Shown: piece by piece, positions 30 through 60,865 of the stretch
Layout of the letters: each line of letters begins with the position of its first letter
How positions within the stretch are numbered: position 1 is the first letter of the stretch
Assembly: GCA_963575745.1 (NCBI GenBank)
Contig: CAUYUJ010000226.1
Coordinates: forward strand, 558,001 to 622,000
Length of the DNA stretch: 64,000 bases
From: Prorocentrum cordatum
Taxonomy: Eukaryota
Reading direction: 5' to 3'
The notes under the pieces: model-generated
Told to the model about the DNA's origin: nothing
Seen by the model: the letters and a program-made list of their open reading frames with translations, nothing else
The model's database searches: none
Made by a program: the position numbers and the translations under genes

Positions 30-41
30 GAGGAGGAGAAG
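30..41 (+). other. Left copy of probable target-site duplication GAGGAGGAGAAG
   Basis: The same 12-mer, with its AAG interruption of the GAG tract, occurs at 5280..5291 directly on the other side of the element. The exact length is ambiguous because the flanks are repetitive. Confidence 0.7.
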
Positions 42-62
42 ATAAGATAAGATAAGATAAGA
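41..62 (-). repeat. (TCTTA)n 3' tandem-repeat tail of the retrotransposon
   Basis: (GATAA)x4 on the plus strand, lying between the 3' UTR and the GAG tract. Confidence 0.8.
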
Positions 63-266
63 CTCTGGGGCGCCTATCCCTCCCTGCACTGCAATGCAAG
101 CCCTCGCTCACAACCTCACATGCTGCAAAGATAAAAAGGCGCCTGGGTTCGCCAAGTTGGCGGACTGGAACTGTAGCCACCGCGCTGCCCCACGACCACT
201 TAAGGAGTGGAGACTGGCCCGATGGCGGACCCGACGGCACGCAGCCTGCGGCTGCCATCATAGGCG

Positions 267-3200
267 CTAACCTCGGGCACCTCTGCCTGAAGTTGCGCCT
301 CGCTCTGAACCTGAACCTCTGCCCCGACGATTTCGAGATCGGGGAGGGAGCTGGATTGCTGGTCCTACCTCTGGGGCTGTGGGAAAGTAGACGGGAGCGG
401 GGGAGGAAGTCGGGATGGCTTCAAGGCCAGGAGGCGGAGGGAGGGAGGAAGGGGAGAAGATCACGCTAGGAGGTCTACTATCAGTCAAACCTGAAACTCT
501 CCTGCTAGCATCCTCACTCAAAAGCCCCGCCCTCAGAAGCTGCTGTGCTCGCTCGCTATTGGCCCAGCTGAAGCCTCTAGAACCCCCTACTTGCACTGGT
601 CTAGCAGACGCTGCGCCTCCCTCACCAGGACCCCTCGCGGGGCCGCCCCCACGGTCTTCTCGCCTCCCTCGGCCTTGAGGCAGTAGCGGATCGCCGAGAG
701 CAGCTGGTTGCCGCGCTCGCTGGTGTCCAAGAGGAACTGCACCTTTGCCATTTCCTTGTCGTCCTTGCCCTTCGTCTTGAGGCGCTTTGCCTTGCAGAAC
801 CTCACCACCTCGCTCAGCACAACTGGGTCCTCCGCTGCCATCACCGTCGACACCCAGTACTGCGCCGCCGCCGTCTGCTCCTTGGGCAACTGCCCCGCTG
901 TCTCCTCGAACGCCGCCCCCTTGATCAATGCTGCAAACGCCCTCAGGTGAGGGGCGTGCATCTTCACCTTCGTGAACTCCTTGCCCTCCTTCTCCGCTGC
1001 CTTCTGAAGCTCGCGCTGCTGCTGGGCCTCCGCGTTGAAGCTCTGGCCCTCCTCGAGCATGAACTGCACCGTACGACTGTCGAGCGGCAGCAGCCACGTG
1101 TCGTACACCGCGCCGATGAGCGCTCTCAACTCCGCCTCGTCGTTGAGCACCAACTTTGCCAAAACAATGACGAGCTCGTCCAGGTTTTGCTTCTTTCCGC
1201 CGCGCTGGACCACCTGACGAGCTTCTTGCGCGCCTCCCCCTGCTGGACCGACGATGCGGCGCACCTTGCCGCTGCCCTCGTCCGTGCTGCGCGCCATCCA
1301 CTTGGGGACCGCCGCCGTCGTGTTCGGCATGGCTGGAAAGGCCGGCTGGACCCGACCACGATGCAGCACGAGCTCGCTGCGCTCGCTGCTGCTGAACACT
1401 GGAACGTGTAGATACAGTATCAAGAACTCGAGGAAGATGACTACGGACATGTTGCTGAAAATCATATGTGTCCGATGCGTGATATTCGCAGAGGGGGCAA
1501 GCCAAGTCAGTAATTTGAGACCGAGCAGCCTGAGACTTTCCACCCCCAGCAATACAGTAACCCCTGTTCATGGAGCCCACGAGGTGCCTGCTAGCCGTGA
1601 TCACCCCCGAGAAGATCCCCCGACAGTTTGGGCACTCGTTAGTGCGGCATAGAACGTGCCCCAATGAACGATAATGATGATGGAATCGTAAGTGGTTTAG
1701 CGCAGACTTCTTATCGGGGAACTTCGCATCGCATCGAACTCGACGACCAATAGTATCGCTAGGATCGCATCTATGTTCATATACACCACAGACCCATTTC
1801 ACAGCACCACCCTGAACGATCTCAGTAGATAACATAGCACTAAGTTGAGGATCATACTCAGGAGGAGGAATCGCCACCGTATGAAGACGTCGTCGTAAGA
1901 GAGAGAAATCAATCTTACAGAACGCTTTTCCAAGCTCCTTATCCCACCAAAGCGCGAGAAACGAGCCCTGCGCACGTTCGAGCAACTCTCGACCGTCCTC
2001 GATATCCTCCAGTGCCTGTACATCTTCAAAGAACTGCTTCGCCCAGGGGTTCGCGTAGGCGGTGAGACGACCCAATTCATCATACTGCGGACGATCGTCC
2101 ACTGCCAATTCAGCAAACAGAGCTGCAAGAATCTGAGCATGCCGCCCAGGATAACGGATGAACTGCACGAGCCACCCCAAACGACGGACCCTGAGCTCGA
2201 GAAAGGCCGGCGTAATACGCCAATGGTTGAGCACCTGCTCGTTGCTGAGACTCTGAACATGTGTAGTGCCCTCATAGCTAGCCCCTCTCATAGCCACTCT
2301 ACAATATCTTACCATCAGAGAATCCAACTTCTTACATAGACCCTCCGTCACCAAGTAGGCCTCCAGGTTCTGGACCCCCGCGTTCTGGACCCCCAACAAG
2401 ACCGAGCGTTTCAACCGAAACGAGATGCCAGGAGTCGACCAGAAACTTCCCAAAGAATGAAACGAACTTTTGATCGCGTTCAGGCGCTTGTTTACCTCTG
2501 GAGTGATCGAGCCCATGGAATGAATCTCCCCTCCCAGCACCCTCATAGACGGACTGACTCCACCTTCAAAAAGTTCAGAAGCAGAGGCTCGTAATCGACG
2601 ATTCGCGGCGACCGAGCCCTGGCCAGAGAGACAGACGATGGTGTTCTGCTTGCTCCTGTTCTGCGCCCATCCCCCTATCTTAAGAACCTCATCCAAGACT
2701 TGATTGGAGTAAAAGTTGGCGGCAGAAAGCTCTGCCAAGCCCGCGTCACCACAAGAGGCCGCAGGACCTCCACCGACGTGCAGCTTCGTGAGGTCATCGG
2801 CATACTTGGTAAGAGACAAATCTACCAACGTGCCTGTAATCGGACAAGTGGCTGCTAGAAGCGCCTCCGAAGGCATCTGGGCGTACAACACCTCACTCCA
2901 TTCACAGACAGGAATCTCATAGGCTCTGCCAAAGCTCTCCACCGCGTAAGGATCTCCCATGAGCGCTCCGCATCTAGGCTTTACAACGAGAGCACGGTCA
3001 CGGGCTGGAAGACATATCGATGCCGACTCGAATCGATCGCGTCCAAACTGACGATCAGGAACATCTAAAAGTGCAGAGTTCGCTTCCAAGAGACTCCAAG
3101 ACGTACTCGGGAAAGCGTTGCTAAGGTCCTTGTTTGACCACGTAAAACTGTAACCTCCCCGTCGCAGACGATGAGAAACCAACATCATCACCAGCATGGC

Positions 3201-5159
3201 CCCCTCCTTACGTCTCCCCTTGCAGAACCCATAGTCGTTGGGACCTAAAGCTTCAGGATTGTTCCTCCGAATGGCCCCAGCTAGCCAAGCCTTGCCCAGC
3301 GGGTCCAGCAGGTGGATGACTCGTTTCCCCTTGGGGCCAGGGGTGGCACTCTTCGGTAAGGCGCAGCCGAAACTCCTATTCCACAAGGTGGGGAACCTGT
3401 TCGCCAGCCGAATACACTGCAAACCACGAGAGAGTGCCTCCTGCAACGGTTCAGGTTGAAACTCGACGGAGTATCCAACTCCAGAGAAATTCTTAGAGAG
3501 TCCAAAAACAGGGTCCACGATCATGCCCCAAATCTCAGCTGGTACACTCCACGGCGGGCACGATCGACGTTTGGGTGCGTGTCGCAAATACTTAGTGATA
3601 GATAACAAATCCGTAGTAGCCTCCATGTTGAACATGCCCAGGTACCCGTTCACCCCCTCCTCCAGCTCCTCCCCCTCCTGGTTGATCTCGGTAACCTCCA
3701 TGCCTCCCTGTGGTCCCTCCTTCTCCCAGACCTCCAGCCATTCCTTAGCACTTAGAGAAGCACCCTCTAGATGGCGATAGCTACGACCACGGGGTCCACG
3801 ACCCTTGCAGGCAAGAACTCGGATCAAGCGATGGGCTTGTTTGTGATTTCTTTTCCGCCAGGCCTCCTCCAACTCCTCCGTTATGTTCTCCCTCCACTCC
3901 CTGAACTGTTGTTTCCTCTGCTGCTGACACTGCTTGCTAATCGCTTTGAGCTGCTGAACCACCTCCACCTCCTCCTCATCGCAGCCGGCGTGGGCGAGAC
4001 GACGGCGAATCTCCAAACGCCTTTGAAGAAGAGTCTTGCGCGCCCTGGCCTGCGCACGGTAGGCCTCGGACGCGTTGGGCAACGATCCACAGAAGAGTTC
4101 ACTAGCCTGCTCACGCACGATGTCATTCAAGATAGTAAAATAAGCATCAGGCCTTCCAGTCGTAGCCGCCGAAGCCAGATCAGACTCACGCTCTTGCAAC
4201 TTGGCAGCCGCACGATTGAGGAAGGTCTCGCGCACGGAGGCATTCTTCATGGTATCGAAGTTCCAGTGAAGACGATTTCTCCCCAACTGTTCAGGCTCGA
4301 CAAATGACCACTTCAGATTACAGTGCAGCGGTATGTGATCACGAGGATGACGGGAAGGAATGCGTTGATGTTGCCTCATAACTCTCATTAATGGTCCAGC
4401 TGTGTTGATCAGGTTCTGGGCGACCACGGGACCGAAGATGTAGTCCACCCTGTTGGAGATGCCGTCCTGGCCAAACCAAGTGTCCTCCACACGGTCCCGA
4501 ACCCCCAGCACTACGAAGCCGAACTCCTCCATCAGTTCTCTAACTAACTGCCCAGCGCCTCCCACGAGATGTTCACGAGTAGCCAGATGCGATGGGATAA
4601 CAGTGGTGTCACAGCTCTGCCAACGACCATCAGAACACACGATGCCAATGCCATCATTCAAATCCATACTTATCAGTGGCATAGTACGTGATGATCGCGA
4701 TATATCAACTAAAAGACCACGGAGCCACGAGACCAGCCTGTTCGTCGCTGCAAAGTAGTTCGGGCGGCCAGCTCGCCCACGTGGTCGAGGAGGAAAGTAA
4801 ACTCCTGCTACTGTGAAGTCCAATCCAGTTCGCTTGAGGCGAAGTCCAAAAGCTCGGCCAGCAATCTCAGCGGGTGCTTGCCATTGTCGCACGATGTGAT
4901 GTTCCCGCAGCCCAGAACTAATCGTGATACTGATTCCAGCCGACTTATTTGTATAGGCTCCAGGACTCCACCCAGCCTCAATCAGCAGTGTGTTGTGCAG
5001 CTTGCGTTTCTGAACAGCCATCCCAGGAAGTGCACGTACCTGCGTACCTATGAAGACGCACGCATGGAAGCTCTTGGCGGTCGCCATGATTATCTCCTCC
5101 TGACGGTCTTTAGAATTCATACTCAATGGATTCCAATGCAGAAATCGAAGCAAAGACAT
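267..5159 (-). CDS. Retrotransposon polyprotein: APE endonuclease, reverse transcriptase, C-terminal zinc fingers
   Basis: APE motifs: LRFLHWN, VAGVYFPP, SMDLND, TW...NRVDYIF, RDHIPL. RT motifs: YGFCKGR, DLSNAFPS, GALMGDP, KYADDL (~2790-2805), VNKRLNAIKSSF..W. Zinc-finger-like motifs at ~1437-1800: C..CDAKF..LNHLRFHH, CPNC..F..RH, CPLC..FQQHVRSH. The last ~380 codons are low-complexity and overlap a second ORF. Confidence 0.93.
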   Translation of the reverse strand: MSLLRFLHWNPLSMNSKDRQEEIIMATAKSFHACVFIGTQVRALPGMAVQKRKLHNTLLIEAGWSPGAYTNKSAGISITISSGLREHHIVRQWQAPAEIAGRAFGLRLKRTGLDFTVAGVYFPPRPRGRAGRPNYFAATNRLVSWLRGLLVDISRSSRTMPLISMDLNDGIGIVCSDGRWQSCDTTVIPSHLATREHLVGGAGQLVRELMEEFGFVVLGVRDRVEDTWFGQDGISNRVDYIFGPVVAQNLINTAGPLMRVMRQHQRIPSRHPRDHIPLHCNLKWSFVEPEQLGRNRLHWNFDTMKNASVRETFLNRAAAKLQERESDLASAATTGRPDAYFTILNDIVREQASELFCGSLPNASEAYRAQARARKTLLQRRLEIRRRLAHAGCDEEEVEVVQQLKAISKQCQQQRKQQFREWRENITEELEEAWRKRNHKQAHRLIRVLACKGRGPRGRSYRHLEGASLSAKEWLEVWEKEGPQGGMEVTEINQEGEELEEGVNGYLGMFNMEATTDLLSITKYLRHAPKRRSCPPWSVPAEIWGMIVDPVFGLSKNFSGVGYSVEFQPEPLQEALSRGLQCIRLANRFPTLWNRSFGCALPKSATPGPKGKRVIHLLDPLGKAWLAGAIRRNNPEALGPNDYGFCKGRRKEGAMLVMMLVSHRLRRGGYSFTWSNKDLSNAFPSTSWSLLEANSALLDVPDRQFGRDRFESASICLPARDRALVVKPRCGALMGDPYAVESFGRAYEIPVCEWSEVLYAQMPSEALLAATCPITGTLVDLSLTKYADDLTKLHVGGGPAASCGDAGLAELSAANFYSNQVLDEVLKIGGWAQNRSKQNTIVCLSGQGSVAANRRLRASASELFEGGVSPSMRVLGGEIHSMGSITPEVNKRLNAIKSSFHSLGSFWSTPGISFRLKRSVLLGVQNAGVQNLEAYLVTEGLCKKLDSLMVRYCRVAMRGASYEGTTHVQSLSNEQVLNHWRITPAFLELRVRRLGWLVQFIRYPGRHAQILAALFAELAVDDRPQYDELGRLTAYANPWAKQFFEDVQALEDIEDGRELLERAQGSFLALWWDKELGKAFCKIDFSLLRRRLHTVAIPPPEYDPQLSAMLSTEIVQGGAVKWVCGVYEHRCDPSDTIGRRVRCDAKFPDKKSALNHLRFHHHYRSLGHVLCRTNECPNCRGIFSGVITASRHLVGSMNRGYCIAGGGKSQAARSQITDLACPLCEYHASDTYDFQQHVRSHLPRVLDTVSTRSSVQQQRAQRARAASWSGPAGLSSHAEHDGGGPQVDGAQHGRGQRQGAPHRRSSRGRRARSSSGGPARRKEAKPGRARHCFGKVGAQRRGGVESAHRRGVRHVAAAARQSYGAVHARGGPELQRGGPAAARASEGSGEGGQGVHEGEDARPSPEGVCSIDQGGGVRGDSGAVAQGADGGGAVLGVDGDGSGGPSCAERGGEVLQGKAPQDEGQGRQGNGKGAVPLGHQRARQPAALGDPLLPQGRGRREDRGGGPARGPGEGGAASARPVQVGGSRGFSWANSERAQQLLRAGLLSEDASRRVSGLTDSRPPSVIFSPSSLPPPPGLEAIPTSSPAPVYFPTAPEVGPAIQLPPRSRNRRGRGSGSERGATSGRGARG
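587..1330 (-). CDS. Hypothetical 247-aa protein nested in the 3' part of the retrotransposon
   Basis: Starts at CCAGCC-ATG (MPNTTAAV...). The first 27 codons all end in G/C. Composition is that of a globular, helical protein (LDELVIVLAKLVL, HAPHLRAFAALIK, VRFCKAKR, C-terminal GAAPRGVLVREAQRLL). It lies in the +1 frame relative to pol. Confidence 0.75.
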   Translation of the reverse strand: MPNTTAAVPKWMARSTDEGSGKVRRIVGPAGGGAQEARQVVQRGGKKQNLDELVIVLAKLVLNDEAELRALIGAVYDTWLLPLDSRTVQFMLEEGQSFNAEAQQQRELQKAAEKEGKEFTKVKMHAPHLRAFAALIKGAAFEETAGQLPKEQTAAAQYWVSTVMAAEDPVVLSEVVRFCKAKRLKTKGKDDKEMAKVQFLLDTSERGNQLLSAIRYCLKAEGGEKTVGAAPRGVLVREAQRLLDQCK

Positions 5160-5279
5160 CAGTTAGCCGCGGCGGCTCTCCAACCGAAACCGCCCGCTGC
5201 TCAAGATTCGGTAGACGGAGTGTGTGGGTATGAAACATATGGAAGGTGGGGGGCGAGAGAGGGTGCACTCGCGCCACCT

Positions 5280-5291
5280 GAGGAGGAGAAG
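5280..5291 (+). other. Right copy of probable target-site duplication GAGGAGGAGAAG
   Basis: Identical to 30..41 and abuts the 5' end of the element. Confidence 0.7.
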
Positions 5292-5575: not shown

Positions 5576-5870
5576 GGAGGAGGAGGAGGAGGAGGAGGAG
5601 GAGGAGGAGGAGGAGGAGGAGGAGGAGGAGGAGGAGGAGGAGGAGGAGGAGGAGGAGGAGGAGGAGGAGGAGGAGGAGGAGGAGGAGGAGGAGGAGGAGG
5701 AGGAGGAGGAGGAGGAGGAGGAGGAGGAGGAGGAGGAGGAGGAGGGGGGAGGGGGAGGGGGAGGGGGAGGGGAGGAGGAGGGGGAGGAGGAGGAGGGAGG
5801 AGGAGGAGGAGGAGGAGGAGGAGGAGGAGGAGGAGGAGGGAGGCGGAGGAGGAGGAGGAGGAGGAGGAGG
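5576..5870 (+). repeat. (GAG)n microsatellite
   Basis: Long, near-perfect GAG run. Confidence 0.95.
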
Positions 5871-8246: not shown

Positions 8247-8746
8247 GAGGAGGAGGAGGAGGAGGAGGAGGAGGAGGAGGAGGAGGAGGAGGAGGAGGAG
8301 GAGGAGGAGGAGGAGGAGGAGGAGGAGGAGGAGGAGGAGGAAGGAGGAGGAGGAGGAGGAGGAGGGAGGAGGGAGGAGGAGGAGGAGAGGAGGAGGAGGA
8401 GGAGAGAGGAGGAGGAGGAGGAGGAGGAGGAGGAGGAGGAGGAGGAGGGGGAGGGGGGAGGAGGAGGAGCGAGGAGGAGGAGAGAGGTGAGGAGGGGAGG
8501 AGGAGGAGGAGGAGGAGGAGGAGGAGGGGAGCGGGAGGAGGAGGGAGCGAGGGAGGAGGAGGAGGAGGAGGAGGAGGAGGAGGAGGAGGGAGGACGGAAG
8601 GAGGAGGAGAGGAGGAGGAGGCAGGAGGAGGAGGAGGGGGAGGGGGGAGGGGTGAGGAGCGGGGGGAGGAGGAGGAGGAGGAGGAGGTAGGAGGAGGAGG
8701 AGAGGAAGGCGGAGGCGGGGCGGAGGAGGAGGAGGAGTAGGAGGAG
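8247..8746 (+). repeat. (GAG)n microsatellite, degenerate toward the 3' end
   Basis: Direct reading of the sequence. Confidence 0.95.
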
Positions 8747-13619: not shown

Positions 13620-13744
13620 CTTACATCGCTAGTGCAAAGCTGGCGGGTTAATTCCATCATTCACCGAAGACGCATGCCTCATATGCTGGGCACCCACATG
13701 AAACACGTACACATGCAGCCTGACCCACATGTTTCATATGATCG

Positions 13745-14430
13745 TGCTCGCAAAGCGTGGCACGCGTGGTATTTCTTCGACACCACAAGGGGTGCGCAGG
13801 GGTGGTCCCCCTCGTTGCGGGTATGCAAAGCGTTGCTGGTTTGGCACTTCCTCGACACCGCAGGGGTGGCGCTTGGAGTGGTCCCCCTATCCGTTTCGGG
13901 CTCGCAGAGCGTGGCAAGTGTGGCACTTCCTCGACACCACAGGGGGTGCGGTGGGGGTTGTCCCCCTGTACGCTTCCTGCTCGCAGAGCTCGGCAAGCGT
14001 GGCACTTCCTCGACACCGCAGGGGTGCGCAGGGGGTGGTTCCGCTCCCCGTTTCGGGCTCGCACAGCGTGACAGGCGTGGCACTCCCTCGACACCACAGG
14101 GGGTGCGCTGGGGCTGATTCCCCTGTCCGATTCGGGCTCGCAAAGTGTGGCCGGCGTGGCACATTCTCGACACCACATGGGGGTGCGCTGGAGGTGGTTT
14201 CCCTATCCGTTTCCTGCTCGCAAAGCGTGGCACGCGTGGCACTGCGTCAACACGCAAGGGGAGTGCGCTGGGTGTGGTCTCCCTATCCGTTTCGGGCTCG
14301 CAACGCGTGGAAGACGTGGCACTTCCTCGACACCACCCAGGGATGCAATGGGGGTGGTCCGACTATCCGTGTCGGGCTCGCAACACGTGGCAGGCGTGGC
14401 ACGTCTTCGACGCCGCAGAGGGGCGCTGTG
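13745..14430 (+). repeat. ~79-bp tandem minisatellite, about 9 copies
   Basis: GTGGCACTTCCTCGACACC recurs at ~79-bp spacing (about 13847, 13926, 14005, 14084, 14163, 14322). Confidence 0.9.
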
Positions 14431-14467
14431 GGGGCGCGCAGATGGGAGCTCCCGACCTCTTCCCCAG

Positions 14468-14797: not shown

Positions 14798-22260
<7,463 letters not shown>

Positions 22261-24245: not shown

Positions 24246-24785
24246 CGTGGCCCCATCGAAGGAGCCATAGGGAGCCCCATAGAAGGAGCCCCATAGGAGC
24301 CCCATAGAAGGAGCCACCTGGATGGCCCCACAGGGAGCCCCATAGAAGGCCCCACAGATCCTCCTCCGTGGCCCCACAGGGAGCCCCAAGAAGGCCCCGG
24401 TGGCAGTGTTCACATGCGGTTCCCCGCCCACTCTGGGCACACCCCGCGCACGCTCCGCGGCCCCATAGGGAGCTCCACCGATCGCCCCGGTTGCAATTTC
24501 CACACTGCCCCACAGGGACCTCCATTGGAGGCCCCAGCGGCATGGTTCGCATGCGGTTCCCCCCCCATTTCGGCACACCCCTCACACGCTTCGTGGCCCC
24601 ATAGGGAGTTCCACCGAAGGCCCCAGTGGAAGGGTTCGCCGGCCATTCAGGCACGCCTCTCAGACGTTTCGTTGCCCCAAGGAGAGCTCCACCGAAGGCC
24701 CCAGTGGCCGGGTTCGCATGCGGTTCCCCGCATGTTTCGGCACACGCACACACATACCGCACGGTTCATGGCCCGTAGGGAGTTC
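24246..24785 (-). repeat. Minisatellite with core GGTGGAGCTCCCTATGGGGCCACG, reverse orientation
   Basis: Repeated GTGGCCCCATAGGGAGCTCCACCG, the reverse complement of the core in the 47.2-48.2 kb array. Confidence 0.85.
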
Positions 24786-26209: not shown

Positions 26210-27177
26210 ATGAACATGGAGAGCAAGGATGCGCGACTTTCCAAGGTCACCCTTGCGGCCTTCCCTCGGCCCGCACTCGGCCTTTTTCGCTGGCTGCGCC
26301 CCGCTCGAAGAGTGTTGACACGGCCTTCCAAGGGCTGCGCACCCGCACCGTACACTGGTATTTTACGACGCGCTGGTTGTAGTCGCCCCCCCGTGAAGCG
26401 GAGCTCGATCCTGCCTCCTCCCCTTACAGGACGCGCGCCAGTAATTATAGAAGAAGCAGCGGTGTGTCATGCGGTTGTCTCCTTCGGGGCTCAAGCGACG
26501 GGGGTCAGTCGGAGCGCCGGACTTTGCAGGATCGTGCAGGGCCAGGGTTGCATTGACCCAGGTTTGGGTGCAGGATCCTCCAGGATCCTGCAGACTCTTG
26601 CAGGATCCTGCGAGGCATGACTGACCGGGGTCTGGATAGACCCGGGTCAGTAGATCCCCGATTCCTCTCCTTCTACTTCTGGGGCCGCGTGGTTCCGCTG
26701 GGCATGCTGCCTGCGGTCTGCACGAGGCTGATATGCAGTCGCGAGCCGCCCCCTCCCTTCGTGGAGAAGCCTTCTCCCTGGAACGTGAAGAGGCCTGCGG
26801 TGTGGCGGCGAGAGCACGCTTCGTGGCCTTGGCTTTGCAGTGGCCCGTGGCACCGGTCTGCCCTCTGTTGGAGACCCTGCGCAAACGACGTCTCTGCCAT
26901 GAGCTGTTCCCGCCGTCGCGGACGCCGGACCCCGGGCGGCTGGAGAAAGCTTACGCCCCAGCGTGGCGCCGCCATCGCATTCATTCTGCAGCCGCCTGGG
27001 GGGCAGGCCACCCCCGGCGGCGGACAGGCATGCTTCATGCCGTGCCTTGCCCGCTGGTGCCCGCCTTGACGACGCCGCTGGGCGCGGACGGGCACCACCG
27101 CCCACGGACAAAAGGGAGGATGATGAGGAGGAGGAGGAGGAGAAGGAGGGGCAGGCGGAGGAGGAGGAGGAGGAGGA

Positions 27178-27208
<31 letters not shown>

Positions 27209-30200
27209 GGAAAGGAGGAGGAGGATGGGGAGGGGGAGGAGGAGGAGGGGGAGGTGAAGGAAGAGGAGGAGGAGGAAGAGGAGGAGGAGGAGAAGGAGGA
27301 GGAGGAGGAGGAGGAGGAGGAGTAGGAGGAGGAGGAGGAGGATTAGGAGGAGGAGGAGGAGGAGGAGGAGGAGGACGAGGGAGGAGGAGGAGGAGGAGGA
27401 GGCCCACCCCCAAAGGACGACGCCGAGGACGAGGACTGGGAGCCGCCGCGCCCCGCGCCGCGTCCTCCTCCTGCCCGGCATGGCTCCCGGGCCCCGCCGG
27501 GAGGGCGCGGTGGCCAGGCCGTGCGTCCTGCAGCCAGGGCGCGGAGAGAAGGAACGCCTCGGGTGCCAGGAGAGAACCTACTAAAAAAACACGTGGCTAT
27601 CGAACACGTTGGCCACCAACGTGGGAGCGAAGAACGCGTGGCAGGCCGAGGAGCGTCGCACGAGACATCGCCGAGGGCGCACGCGCCTGCACGGAAGCCC
27701 GCGCCTGACCTCGCCGATGCCTGCGGAGGAGAGATCTAACAAGTTTCCCTCATTGCGGGCAAGACTTGTGTCCAGATCCAGTGCAGCTTGGAGTTTCGGG
27801 CTCCCTTCCCTAGAAACCCGAGGCGCACCGGTATGGGTGAAGATGTGGCCCCTGGAGGCTCGATGTTTATCCATATCCAGTGCGCCTCGGCCTTGCAGCG
27901 TCCCTTCAAAGAAATACCAAGTCGCACTGGATCTGAATATTAAGATTGCCCGCACAGGAGGGGCTTCGGTTTGCGAGCCGCTCCTGGAGGCAAGGGAGGA
28001 AGAACCACCTGGCAACGATCATCGGCGTTTGCTGGACGGCCCTGGGCGTTTACGGAGCAGTCCTGCCCTGTTCGCTTCCGTCTTTGGGTGCGTTCACGAA
28101 ACGGTTTCGCGTGTCAGGGTGTTGAGTTCGAGGGTGGATTTTCTGCCCTCGATTGAACCTGGGTCGGGGAACCTCTTCGTGGCCGAGGCGTGCCGTCGAT
28201 CTGAAACTGCCCCTGCCTTCCTTGTGCAGCGCGCCTTCCCTGATGGTAGCGCGCGGACTGCAGGCTCGGGCCCCGGGGGGGAAGCGAGAGGGAGCAGGCC
28301 TTCTCAGAGGGGCAACCATAAGGGGGGGGGATGGGCATGGGGGGAATGCATCGACCACCAATCGCCCGTCGATCGCCGATTTGGGTCTCATCGCCTCGCC
28401 CCGCCCAGGAAGGTGCGGATTCGCCAGCGGGGGCCGTTCGCCGATCTGTCGACGATGCATATTAGTGCCGAGTCCAAGTCGATGCGTCCCCCCCCGGGTG
28501 CCAGCCGCCCCCCATCGTTGCCCCTCATTCTCAGAGGGTGGCGGGGCTTCTCAGAAGCCCTCCGGCCTTCCGAGAAGTTGTTTGGGTCTCCGGGGGAGGC
28601 TTATGGAGCTTGTCAGAAGGCCCGAGGTCTTTCGAGCCATCAGAGAAGGCCTGCCCCTTTTCACTCCCCCCACTCCTCCAGGGCTCGCCGCCAATAGGCC
28701 TCCCGGATGGTTCCCGAGTAGATCTCAGGCCTTAAACGTATTGACCAATTCCAAACGGAGGTTTTCTTTTTTGGGGGGGATTTTCAGCCTCTGGGGGCCC
28801 TTGCCGAGACTTGGGGCCCTTACAAAACGGCTGCATGGGGATGTAAACTTTGTCTTGGGGGATGGGTCGGGAGTTCCAGGGACTGCGTATCCATAACATC
28901 AAAACATCGGATCTTTGGGATGGGTTCGGAGGACCGCGCCGCATCGCCAATGCAGAGAGATGCTGGCGGGGGGGTCCCTCATCAGAACACAGAAACCCTA
29001 CCAGACAGCCCTTGGCATTCTTCAGCGCCTCAATGTGCACAAGGCATGGTGGCGGATTTAATCTCGTCAGTTTTAGGACCGTCGTCGTTCGTCTTCTTGG
29101 AAGCACTTTGTTCTGCAGACTGTGCGACCAATGGTGCGTTGGGTGTTGTGCAGGACAAAGTCAGGGACGGCAAGTTCAATAGGCGGTGCTCGGAGGAGGA
29201 GGAGGAGGACGGCGACGACGAAGAACTAGCCCACTTCTTCGCCTTTCCCCGCCTTCTACTTCCCTCCTCGCCCTCCGCTCATGTTGTTCACATTGTGCCT
29301 CCATTGACTCCTCTCTTTCCTCGCCCTCCTCTCATATCGGCCATAGACCGCTCCCCATTGACATTGTGCGAGCTTCAACTCGTTGCGTGTGGGCTACCTG
29401 TTTGCCACGTAGCTCCTTGGTGCGGGCTTTTGTGCGCGCGTCAGGATGCGCCTCAGTCGGCGTTGCCGGCAGCCGCGGCCACGCCAGGGGCGGACTCTAC
29501 CGACCGAAGTGAGGGCCTTATTGAGACGGTCCGCATTGACTCCGATCGATCGGTGCATCATTTCGAGAGATCGCACCCGATCTGATGGATGGGCCAGACG
29601 ATGATTTCTGCCCATCTTGCCTCGGGTAGCATGCGTCCGCCTTTGACGGGTATATCAGTGTATACATCGATATCAGTAATTTACCGTCTCGGCTTGCCAG
29701 GGTTGTTTAGCTTCTTCATAATTTGAAGCCTGGGATGCGATTCTGGTCTTTCTGTTACGCGGTGCAAATCATATTTTGGTGCACTGTCAGTTGTGCAGGG
29801 TCGAAGTTATGTGATGCATGCATTCGGCGTGTGAAGTTGCGAGGTGTTGAGTGTCGTTTAAACAAGCGGTGTGCAGTCGATTCTGTGGATAATCCCGAGG
29901 TGGACCAGGAAAAGGAAAAGGAGGAGGAATCCTGGAGGCTTCTGGTACGCTTCGGCTATTTCCTGATCTCCAGAGAAGGAGGAGGAGGAGGAGGAGGAGG
30001 AGGAGGAGGAGGAGGAGGACGACGAGGCAGTGGAGGTGGAGGTGGAGATTGGAGGAGGAGTCAAAAGTCCTGATGGGAAGGTAGTAGGAGGAAGCCGAAG
30101 GAGGCGTGCGAGGAGGTGGAGGACGAGCAAGGGACGAGTAGGTGGTCCGGGGAATTTCAAGAGTCTCCCGGCTCGCACTGCGTCCCGCTCCCTCCTGCCC

Positions 30201-45939: not shown

Positions 45940-46545
45940 ACCCTCACTCGGATCGTATTATCTGCCCGGTGTCGTGCTGCTCCCACCCCTCCAGGGAGGC
46001 CGTCAGAGCGCGCAGGGTCTTCAACACACCCATATTCTCTCTTAGGTTTCGTCCCCTCGAACCCCTCCAAGGAGGCCCCGCCAGAGCGGGCAGGGCATTC
46101 GAATACCATACCGTTGACAAGATTTCGTGGACCAGAGCAGGCACGGCATTTCCGAACCATATTATTTACCGGGTGTTGTGCCCCTCCCCTCCCTCCAGGG
46201 AGGCCCCACCAGAGCGGGCAGGAGATTCGATTACCAGATTCTTTACGCGTTGGCCCCGCCAGAGCGCACAGTGTATGCGAATATCATACTATTTGCCAGG
46301 TTTTGTGCCCCTCCGACCCCTCCATGGGGTGCCCGCCAGAGCAGGCAGGGTTTTCGAACATCATACTATTTGCAAGGTTCTGTGCCCCCTCCGCCCCTCC
46401 ATGGAGGCCCCGCTAGATCGGGCAAAGTATTCGAATGCAATACAATTTATCTGGTGTTGTGTGTTGTGCTCCTTCCACCCCTCCAGGGTAACCCGCCACA
46501 GCCGGCAGGGTATCACAATACCATCATGTCAAAGGTTTCGTGTCT
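45940..46545 (+). repeat. Diverged ~78-bp tandem minisatellite
   Basis: CCCCTCCAGGGAGGCCCCGCCAGAGCGGGCAGGG...TCGAA..CATA recurs several times, with some units shortened. Confidence 0.8.
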
Positions 46546-47174: not shown

Positions 47175-48195
47175 TCGGTGAAGCTCCCTTTGGGGCCACG
47201 AAGCGCTGCACTGGGTGGGGGGTGACCGCATGTGGGCGGTCCCACTGGGGGCTTCGGTGGAGCTCCCTATGGGGCCACGAAGCGCTGTACTGGGTGGGTG
47301 AAAATGCCAAATCGTGTGTGTGTGTGTGTGACACATGCGGACGGTCCCACTGGGGCTTCGGTGGAGGCCACGAAACGCTGTACTGGGTGTGCGAAAATGC
47401 CAAATTGGGTGTGCGGGACGCACGCGGACGGTCCAATTGGGGGCTTCGGTGGAGCTCCCTATGGGGCCACGAAGCGCTGTACTGGGTGGGTGTAATTGCC
47501 GAATTGGGTGCGCGGGGCGCATGTGGGCGCTCCCACTGGGGGCTTCGGTGGAGCTCCCCATGGGGGCCACGAAACGCTGTACTGGGTGTGTGAAAATGTC
47601 AAATTGCGGGTGCGGGACGCATGCGGGCGGTCTGACTGGGGGCTTCGGTGGAGCTCCCCATGGGGCCGCGAAGCGCTGTATTGGGTGAATGAAAATGCCA
47701 AATTGGGTGTGCGGGACGCATGCGGACGGTCCCATTGGCCACGAAACGCCGCATTGGGTGTGGCGCAAGCATGTGGCCATCCCTTCTGAGGCTTCCGATG
47801 GAGCTTCCTATGGGGCCACGCAATGTTGTACTGGGTGTGGCGGACGCATGTGGCCACCCGCACTGGGGCCTTCGGTGGAGCTCTCTATGGGGCCACGAAA
47901 CGCTGTACTGGGTGTGTCGGACGCATGTGGCCACCCCCACTGGGGCCTTGGGTGGGGCTCCCTATGGGGCCACGAAGCGCTGTCTTGGGTGTGGCGAGCT
48001 CCCTCTGGGGTCACGAAACGCTGTACTGGGTGTGGCGTACGCATGTGGTACCCCCACTTGGGCCTTACGTGGAGCTCCCTATGGGGCCACGAAGCGCAGA
48101 CTCATGTGGTACCCCACTGGGTCCTTACATGGAGCTCACTATGGGGCCACGAAACGCCATACTGGGTGTGGCGGACGCATGTGGTACCCCCATTT
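47175..48195 (+). repeat. Tandem array of ~65-110-bp units with core GGTGGAGCTCCCTATGGGGCCACGAAGCGCTGTACTGGGTG
   Basis: About 13 related units. Confidence 0.92.
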
Positions 48196-59339: not shown

Positions 59340-59599
59340 TGAGCTCCTCACTCCTCGATCCTCGTGGTGGTAGGTAGCTATAGACTGCATCATGGGGCGA
59401 TCGCGACACGGCAGGCCCCAGAACGAGGCAGATGTGCTGGCCGTGGGTCTCCCGAGGCGCCCGGGTGTCGAGGTGCCTTGGGGGAGAACCTGGAAGAGGA
59501 AGAGGAGGACTCATCAGAAGGAACGCAGTGACGGTGAACCTCAGGCAGCTCTCACAACTAAAAGCTGCTCCGTGTTAGGGAGGAACATGTGGAGGGGGA

Positions 59600-59937
59600 C
59601 AAGGAGGATGAGAGAGAGGAGGAGCAGTAGCAGGAGGAGGAGGAGCAGGAGCAGGAGAAGGAGCAGGAACAGGAGCAGGAGCAGGAGGAGGAGGAGGAGC
59701 AGGAGGAGTAGGAGGAGGAGGAGGAGGAGGAGGAGGAGGGGGATCAGTATGTGAAGGAGGAGGAGGAGGAGGAGGAGGAGGAGGAGGAAGGAGGGAGGAG
59801 GAGGAGGAGGAGGAGGAGCAGGAACAAGCAGCAGGAGCAGGAGCAGGAGCAAGGATGAGGAGGAGGATGAGGAGGAGAAGAAGGAAGAGGAGCAGTAGGA
59901 GGAGCAGGAGGAGGAGGAAGAGGAGGAAGAGGAGGAA

Positions 59938-59992
<55 letters not shown>

Positions 59993-60029
59993 CTGATGAT
60001 GCTGATGCTGATGATGATGATGATGATGC

Positions 60030-60069
<40 letters not shown>

Positions 60070-60147
60070 CATGATCATGATCATGATCATGATCATGATC
60101 ATGAGGAGAGGATGAGGATGAGGATGAGGATGAGGATGAGGAGGATG

Positions 60148-60201
<54 letters not shown>

Positions 60202-60675
60202 CTGATGCTGATGATGCTGATGCTGATGATGATGATGATGATTGATGATGAGGAGGAGGAGGAGGAGGAGGAGGAGGAGGAGGAGAGGAGATGAGGATGA
60301 GGATGATGAGGATGAGGATGAGGATGAGGATGAGGATGAGGGAGGAGGAGGAGGAGGAGGAGGAGGAGGAGGAGGAGGAGCAGAAGGAGGATCAGTATGA
60401 GGAGGAGGAGGAGGAGGAGGAGGAGGAGGAGGAGGAGGAGGAGGGGAGAGAGGAGGAGGAGGAGGAGGAGGAGGAGGAGGAGGAGGAGGAGCAGGAGCTG
60501 GAGCAGGAGGAGTGGGAGCAGGAGCAGATGCAGAAGCAGGAGCAGGAGCAGGAGGAGGAAGAAGAGGAAGATAATGAGGAGGAGGACGAGGAGGAGGAGG
60601 AGGAGGAGGAGCAGGAGGAGGAGGAGGAGCAGGAGGAGGAGCAGGAGGAGGAGCAGGAGGAGGAGCAGGGAGGAG
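59600..60675 (+). repeat. Compound microsatellite GAG/CAG > GAT > GATCAT > GATGAG > GAG
   Basis: Direct reading of the sequence. Confidence 0.93.
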
Positions 60676-60865
60676 GACTGCCACGCCCGTGCTGCCGCGC
60701 CCCCAGCGGCCCGGCGAGTGCCATGCGGGCTCCCCCCGCCGGCTTTGGGCGCCTCGCGGCATGCGCCCGCCCCGCGCGCCGGGGGGCGGCGCCCAGGGGC
60801 GCGCGGGGGCGCGGCTGCTGGCCGGCGGCGCGGGCTGCAGGCTCGGCGCGTACCCTCTCCAGACC

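Follow-up and report, generated by a model that had tools for sequence, protein, structure and literature searches.

Structure of the element

The window is a stretch of 64,000 nucleotides (nt) from Prorocentrum cordatum (contig CAUYUJ010000226.1, positions 558,001–622,000). Close to its beginning, on the reverse strand, lies a sequence which is best explained as an intact copy of a divergent retrotransposon without long terminal repeats (LTRs), in a dinoflagellate-like genome. Most of it is a single open reading frame (ORF), pol, with an endonuclease-like and a reverse-transcriptase-like (RT-like) region. Here we describe a second gene, which we call ORF2 and its protein ORF2p; it lies inside the 3' part of pol and is read in another frame. 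The features of the element are the following, all of them on the reverse strand and listed from its 5' end.

5280..5290: putative target-site duplication, 5' copy TTCTCCTCCTC, in a (CTC)n microsatellite
41..5279: the complete copy of the non-LTR retrotransposon, 5' end to 3' tail, delimited by TTCTCCTCCTC on either flank and by its (CTTAT)4 tail; no LTRs or terminal inverted repeats (TIRs)
5160..5279: 5' leader of 120 nt, from the element start at 5279 to the pol ATG at 5159, too short for an ORF1
267..5159: pol ORF, 1630 codons and a stop, an open reading frame
4326..5141: endonuclease-like N-terminal region (LHWNP ... MDLND ... RVDYIF ... RDHIPL), motifs read directly
2520..3332: RT-like region (KGKRVIHLL, KDLSNAFPS, MGDPYAVESF, YADD, NRSKQNT, VLGGEIH), motifs read directly
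1431..1796: C-terminal Cys/His zinc-finger region, ending in HVRSHLP; zf-C2H2_4 at E 1.4e-4, below the Pfam cut-off
1331..1430: variable spacer in the pol frame, from the last finger to the ORF2 ATG, seen from the substitutions in a contig of sequencing run X1
587..1330: nested ORF2, 247 codons and a stop, in the +1 frame relative to pol; supported by the reading frame, its relatives and the predicted fold
267..1430: pol tail rich in Gly, Arg, Ala and Ser, 387 amino acids (aa), isoelectric point (pI) 11.5, covering all of ORF2 and 105 codons past its stop
62..266: 3' untranslated region after the pol stop, multicopy (four X1 contigs span position 136)
41..61: (CTTAT)4 pentanucleotide 3' tail, read from the sequence
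30..40: putative target-site duplication, 3' copy, matching TTCTCCTCCTC

A repeat search found neither LTRs nor inverted repeats; the only long repeats at the element are those of the flanking microsatellite. The absence of LTRs and TIRs, the 3' tail of short repeats and the 11-nt flanking repeat are the non-LTR signature features that we have seen. The first-pass annotation, made from the sequence alone, had described the element as bounded by a target-site duplication. The 11-nt repeat TTCTCCTCCTC is indeed present on both sides and such an origin is plausible, but it lies within the (CTC)n microsatellite and low-complexity sequence, a setting which precludes proof. The same annotation had seen no space for an ORF1 upstream of pol, and the 120 nt between 5279 and 5159 bear this out.

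The order of regions in pol is apparent by eye: endonuclease-like motifs at residues 7–278, then the series of RT-like motifs in their usual order, with YADD at 2804..2793 (residues 786–789), and finally three Cys/His clusters, the last of which is the C2H2 finger CPLCEYH...HVRSH at 1499..1437. Searches of pol segments against Pfam, NCBIfam and PDB sequences gave no significant RT or endonuclease match; the zinc fingers were matched below threshold. The sole database hint of an endonuclease is a weak match of the N-terminal region to PDE12, an enzyme of the EEP fold, at E 0.78. For the RT region, AlphaFold2 run on the single sequence gave a low-confidence model with a predicted local distance difference test (pLDDT) of 31.5. 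A homologue search with pol residues 1–1270 found one match, the predicted protein P0009.

Within the window the element occurs once, and no Rfam family was matched there. In X1 there are 285 contigs at least 80% identical to the element, spread across all 30 bins: 45 are at least 99% identical, 81 lie at 95–99%, 74 at 90–95% and 85 below 90%. Since 240 of the 285 are less than 99% identical, the element family is multicopy, dispersed and diverged. X1 may be the source sample, but the contigs below 99% are other copies. One X1 contig which joins 456 to 5281 was considered as an empty site and dropped: one of its sides has only 20 nt, of GGA-like low complexity.

The nested gene

ORF2 lies wholly within the pol ORF (5159..267). 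It begins with an ATG at 1330, 3.8 kb into pol and 37 codons past the last C2H2 finger, where a pol codon begins at 1331; it ends with a TAG stop at 589..587, and 526 nt separate its end from the (CTTAT)4 tail. The start context is cagccATGc and the protein ends in ...GAAPRGVLVREAQRLLDQCK. In all this the first-pass annotation was accurate: it had noted a same-strand ORF of 247 codons in the +1 frame after the last zinc finger, with a CAGCC-ATG context and this C-terminus. It had also remarked on codons ending in G or C, unlike those of pol, and the difference is real. The sum of the G and C shares at third positions (GC3) is 0.866 in ORF2, compared with 0.56 in the pol core, and third-position T amounts to 0.049 versus 0.30.

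A word-indexed search with ORF2p gave six relatives of nearly the same length, 43–55% identical, with E between 3e-62 and 2.5e-31. Five of them come from P. cordatum and one is a EukProt entry labelled Pyramimonas. An exhaustive search gave 137 representatives at E<=1e-3, 37 of them at E<=1e-10 and two at E<=1e-30. Most of these relatives are free-standing proteins of 200–290 aa. The Pyramimonas entry (P0008) is almost identical to the P. cordatum proteins P0005 and P0009 across 151 residues, and its label may be due to contamination or a mix-up. Another relative, P0139 (714 aa), has its ORF2-like domain at 480–709, behind about 470 residues which contain a P-loop-like motif GEPNFGKT; no Pfam family matches these N-terminal residues at E<=0.01. 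P0139 could come from another carrier element or from merged gene models.

From 143 family proteins we picked 79 members which look full-length and aligned them (alignment A2). Two columns are invariant, both Pro, and three are nearly so (L60, G228, R237). Such a profile seems less typical of an enzyme than of a protein with a binding or structural role. ORF2p is basic (pI 9.1–9.5), with an N-terminal P-x-W/F motif which is followed by a Lys/Arg stretch. AlphaFold2 on the 79 members gave a confident model, with a mean pLDDT of 87.7 and a predicted template modelling score (pTM) of 0.77: a disordered basic N-terminus (1–45), a long helical hairpin (47–75 and 86–115) and an alpha/beta domain.

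The first-pass annotation had recognised no domain in the protein, and our searches agree. No Pfam family was above the cut-off for ORF2p (P0001) or for any of the 79 members; none matched more than one of the 79, and none of the four that matched one was an ORF1p family. A sequence profile search of PDB gave a best E of 0.058. Foldseek with the model, a check proposed in the annotation, had no match at E<=1e-3 in PDB or BFVD. VIA-align against 48,161 chains reached a best Z of 6.2 across 49 helical residues, and a structural re-comparison of the top 1000 Foldseek entries reached 5.4. The alpha/beta part compares with ferredoxin-like folds (S6, ACT, Cas6) at Z 3.7–5.1 over about 72 residues, which is possibly just a common arrangement. 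ORF2p is a member of a large unnamed protein family, with a fold that is confidently predicted.

The gene in related elements

Relatives of ORF2 were sought in DNA with alignments smaller than A2, since the 79-sequence alignment is too diverse for scanning loci. A first scan of metagenomes (alignment A3) confirmed none of 321 pattern matches; a second one confirmed two of 117, the loci L001 (1642 nt) and L002 (2213 nt). No pattern match was confirmed in viral contigs (0 of 89 and 0 of 27) or in prokaryote genomes (0 of 61). The ORF2 relatives of L001 and L002 share 26% identity with ORF2p of the window. Ahead of them stands DNA which codes for a homologue of the window pol, covering residues from about 1000 to 1243 or 1282, at 27–29% identity (E 3e-28), and ORF2 starts 8–14 codons past the end of the Cys/His finger region. 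The same layout, a pol finger region followed by ORF2 in the +1 frame, is therefore found in all three DNA loci with readable upstream DNA. With identities so similar, ORF2 has diverged in step with the pol C-terminus. The 3' ends are also alike: L002 has an (AGTCA)4–5 repeat about 160 nt past the pol stop, and the window has (CTTAT)4 about 205 nt past it.

Three mosaic gene models add to the three loci with ORF2 homologues directly behind pol sequence, the linkage that the first-pass annotation had proposed to look for. In the P. cordatum models P0003 and P0009, pieces colinear with the window pol are joined to an ORF2-like part; in P0128 the last finger stands ahead of it. P0003 (a nucleotide-sugar transporter) and P0048 (poly(A)-polymerase/TUTase-like) are host gene models which have element pieces as exons, probably intronic insertions which were mis-annotated. 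Their uptake in host gene models fits the behaviour of a mobile element.

We have also considered whether the +1 offset is a frameshift mutation private to the window copy. This is ruled out: an X1 contig of 476 nt bridges 1115–1590 with 27 substitutions and no gap, and the offset is also +1 in L001 and L002. Variation is higher in the spacer than in ORF2: in one X1 contig, among the differences listed, there are 14 at 1338–1412 as against 6 at 1212–1271.

With 137 relatives, a confident fold and the same layout in three of three loci, the proposal that pol holds a second gene, nested within it downstream of the RT and zinc fingers, stands. An origin as a host gene, which the first-pass annotation had listed among its options, is disfavoured. 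The supposition would be that ORF2 is a gene of the host, perhaps one of a multigene family, which was taken up by 3' transduction or lay where the element chanced to land. This would fit its codon usage unlike that of pol, its single copy in the window and the fact that most family members in protein libraries come without genomic context; it is nevertheless a very improbable origin, since the junction of fingers, +1 ORF2, tail and pentanucleotide repeat recurs in elements just 26–29% identical, the divergence of ORF2 keeps pace with that of the pol C-terminus, ORF2 is located within the element ahead of (CTTAT)4, its codon bias is accounted for by the overlap (as described below), and family members are found inserted in unrelated host gene models.

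Coding in two frames

In the window, L001 and L002 alike, ORF2 is shifted by +1 from the frame of pol, which stays open across it. We have compared this with synonymous shuffles of ORF2, which keep each protein and its codon usage. The number of stops in the pol frame, the probability of finding none, P(0), and the stops in the third frame are the following.

Window: 0 pol-frame stops observed across ORF2, 3.0 expected, P(0) 0.026; third frame 9 stops
L001: 0 observed, 7.2 expected, P(0) <5e-5; third frame 6 stops
L002: 0 observed, 11.3 expected, P(0) <5e-5; third frame 17 stops

Stops in the third frame are not depleted in any of the three loci. The avoidance concerns a precise junction: ORF2 codons ending in T precede GA at none of 107 junctions, and precede GC, GG or GT at 25 of 211 (p 2e-5). 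As a control we took those parts of pol in the three elements which code in one frame only. Their equivalent alternative frame has 69, 17 and 14 stops (expected 81.9, 15.6 and 18.8 in the window, L001 and L002) and T|GA is found at 41 of 128, 11 of 27 and 6 of 29 junctions. Past the ORF2 stop the pol frame stays open for another 105 codons in the window and 97 in L002, with shuffle P(0) of 0.036 and 0.0096; over these stretches there are 5 and 9 stops in the other two frames of the window, 4 and 8 in those of L002. In L001 the pol frame is open to the end of the contig. Both frames are thus open in diverged relatives (three of three), and the depletion of stops is specific to one phase and absent from the control regions of pol.

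This also explains the peculiar codon usage. In the three loci the third positions of ORF2 are poor in T (0.05–0.14, compared with 0.27–0.31 in pol) and rich in G. These positions are the first positions of the pol-tail codons, where T is avoided, hence the G- and C-ending codons of ORF2. They are better read as a mark of the overlap than of foreign origin or gene capture.

The two overlapping sequences have been treated differently in evolution. The pol tails of the three loci, 315 to 387 aa, are rich in Gly, Arg and Ser (also in Ala in the window and L002), with pI 9.2–11.5. In pairwise protein alignments ORF2 has a shuffle z of 19–47 and the homologous finger region one of 46–66, whereas that of the pol tail is –0.2 to 2.9. 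With high values for ORF2 and values near zero for the tail, this shows that ORF2 is kept by selection on its protein, and the pol tail, whose sequence is not conserved, only by stop-codon avoidance.

One X1 contig has, at window positions 1086–1090 in ORF2, an insertion of one nt behind 1086 and a deletion of one nt at 1090. The two changes compensate each other, so that both reading frames are restored within 4 nt.

Everything considered, the region is in all likelihood a true dual-coding region in a divergent lineage of long interspersed nuclear elements (LINEs). The first-pass annotation had described an architecture with pol first and an accessory gene after it. Its order holds, with a gene 3' of the RT and no 5' ORF1; it has to be amended in that the pol frame itself is open across ORF2 and beyond, which makes this a case of coding in two frames.

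Proposed expression and function of ORF2

The predicted start of ORF2p is conserved. Among 143 proteins scanned, 48 match the pattern P-x-[WF], and in 45 of these a Met lies at most 12 residues upstream of the motif; the 95 proteins without a match include many fragments. At the ORF2 ATG, position –3 is a purine in each of the three loci, and in L001 and L002 position +4 is a G. These data show what appears to be a start of its own for ORF2p.

We propose that ORF2p would be translated from this AUG, just behind the fingers. Because the ATG lies 3.8 kb into the pol ORF, the likeliest source of the protein would be a shorter mRNA with the same 3' end, produced either by trans-splicing of a spliced leader or by transcription from an internal promoter. 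Spliced-leader trans-splicing is the norm in dinoflagellates. The dinoflagellate spliced-leader motif has no match in the window at up to three mismatches. Translation of pol through the overlap would end 160–205 nt from the 3' tail. The purpose is a matter of speculation: by finishing there, the new pol may be placed near the RNA 3' end which it must use; alternatively, the open pol frame might serve to avoid a 3' untranslated region of more than 1 kb.

As for the function, the first-pass annotation had named an RNP chaperone, a targeting factor and an anti-silencing factor as candidate roles. ORF2p may be an RNA-binding, particle-forming partner similar to ORF1p, a role that we suggest with some reserve. 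What points to it is the basic charge of the protein, the abundance of Lys and Arg in its N-terminal arm and hairpin loop, and the fact that the element has no 5' ORF1.

The best of the other explanations is that ORF2 is a C-terminal pol domain, reached by a programmed +1 ribosomal frameshift past the fingers, perhaps beside a pol which bears the tail. There is room for a shift site: the ORF2 frame is open upstream of its ATG for 74 codons in the window, 57 in L001 and 55 in L002. The +1 offset is constant across the three loci, and P0128 has the last finger, tail-like sequence and an ORF2-like domain in one predicted protein. However, a Met stands just ahead of the conserved N-terminal motif in nearly all proteins which match the pattern, the ATG has its purine at –3 in the three loci and its G at +4 in L001 and L002, and the family consists mostly of free-standing proteins. 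P0128 may also be a decayed copy with indels. A fusion needs no open pol frame downstream, yet this frame is open. We consider a frameshift unlikely.

It could also be argued that only ORF2 is functional past the fingers, and that the open pol frame is a by-product of composition with an unselected tail. The window alone would allow it: a GC3 of 0.87 leaves few pol codons which begin with T, its P(0) is not extreme, and the sequence of the tail is not conserved. The relatives make it hardly tenable. With GC3 of 0.70 and 0.64, L001 and L002 have 29 and 38 codons ending in T and no pol-frame stop, which happened in none of 20,000 shuffles of either. The avoidance is moreover specific to the stop-forming T|GA junction and to one phase, it is not seen where pol of these elements codes in one frame only, and the pol frame goes on for about 100 codons past the ORF2 stop.

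Our preferred interpretation, dual coding with an ORF1p-like accessory protein, has several points against it. The P(0) of the window itself is modest. In the overlap there are only seven substitutions among the differences listed (40 of 777): three are synonymous and four not in ORF2, one is synonymous and six not in the pol frame, and six of the seven fall in the disordered N-terminus of ORF2p. For comparison, the pol core has 11 synonymous and seven other substitutions among the differences listed. The DNA loci are only three and mutually related, so that they are not independent samples, and they are saturated in substitutions relative to one another. L002 may be a dead copy, with a break of its pol frame upstream (from frame 3 to frame 1 near 86–94). 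The RT and endonuclease assignments depend on motifs read by eye. That both proteins are produced we infer from the sequence, and P0128, which reads from the pol frame into the ORF2 frame, could hint at a fusion product. The ORF1p-like role has no match in fold or sequence behind it, with a best Z of 6.2 over some 50 helical residues and the low ferredoxin-like values given above.

Joining dual coding with the proposed expression, we arrive at a wider picture, which is possible although somewhat short of probable. The element would represent a deep LINE lineage, dinoflagellate-wide, in which the 5' ORF1 has been replaced by an accessory gene overprinted on a disordered pol tail. The fold of its protein would be unseen in solved structures, its mRNA would be a 3' subgenomic one with a spliced leader, and pol would be read almost to the RNA 3' end. 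Among non-LTR retrotransposons it would be the first with obligate dual coding, a LINE counterpart of the hepadnavirus P/S overlap.

Other repeats in the window

The window is rich in tandem repeats. The longest is an imperfect (AGT)n array of 7.4 kb at 14799–22209, with about 2465 copies and 74% matches. Long trinucleotide arrays of the GGA/GAG/CCT type are found at 5576–5870, 8247–8746, 27115–27402, 59591–60677 and other positions; the element sits within one of them. There are also satellite-like tandem repeats with units of 77–136 nt (199 nt in a row of double units), at 13742–14433, 24371–24717, 46252–46435 and 47227–47996. The motifs GGAGCTCC and CCCCA[CT]AGGG recur in several of their units, which suggests that these repeats are related as a family.

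Comparison with known systems

LINEs are usually taught as having either ORF1 followed by pol, or pol only. If our interpretation is true, the element has a new LINE gene layout, with a conserved folded accessory protein encoded past the RT, in another frame inside pol. It would also be a rare eukaryotic instance of long-lived dual coding outside viruses. A literature search, mostly at the level of records, found no description of the element or of a LINE ORF nested in pol; the supplements of the P. cordatum genome paper (repeat library and proteome tables) were outside its scope and may bear on this.

The element points to where a large family of unnamed dinoflagellate proteins probably comes from, which are now present in gene sets as 'uncharacterised' or as false exons, such as those of P0003 and P0048. 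Dinoflagellate genomes have a large fraction of unclassified repeats, for which a LINE lineage with a pol that Pfam does not see is of relevance. It also raises the question of how a LINE expresses a 3' cistron in hosts which use spliced-leader trans-splicing.

Additional ORFs have been described in other retroelements. In LTR retrotransposons and in the Penelope-like Athena elements, ORF3 genes found after pol are typically separate transcription units (Rodriguez et al. 2017, PMC5408684). Like them, ORF2 is an extra, family-specific ORF in the downstream part of a retroelement. In the parts of that paper available to us, however, the ORFs are env-like or code for GDSL esterases or DEDDy exonucleases, and they are not described as nested in pol. 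Primate L1 has ORF0, an antisense ORF of 71 aa upstream of ORF1 which is primate-specific (as cited in PMC5203782). It is, like ORF2, an additional LINE ORF beyond the classical ones; ORF2 differs from it by being deeply conserved, on the sense strand and inside pol.

The closest comparisons are with two further systems. ORF1p of L1 has a coiled coil, an RRM and a C-terminal domain. Like the ORF1p of LINEs, ORF2p is small, basic and accessory to a retrotransposon with endonuclease and RT, and it has long helices and a small alpha/beta domain. It differs in being encoded 3' of the RT, nested in pol, and in having no Pfam match and no convincing match in fold. By sequence ORF2p does not fall in the ORF1p families of the Transposase_22 or RRM type; compared with a coiled coil and RRM, its model has a helical hairpin and an alpha/beta domain with weak ferredoxin-like similarity (Z 3.7–5.1).

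In hepadnaviruses the envelope gene S lies in another frame within the polymerase ORF P, over an internal spacer which tolerates change, and has its own promoter. Here too a complete second gene is found in another frame, within a segment of the polymerase ORF that tolerates change. The differences are that we deal with a LINE and not with a virus, that the segment is a C-terminal tail and not an internal spacer, and that nothing suggests that ORF2p is a membrane protein. By analogy, the nearest counterpart of ORF2 in function would be the ORF1p of LINEs, and in architecture the P/S overlap of hepadnaviruses.

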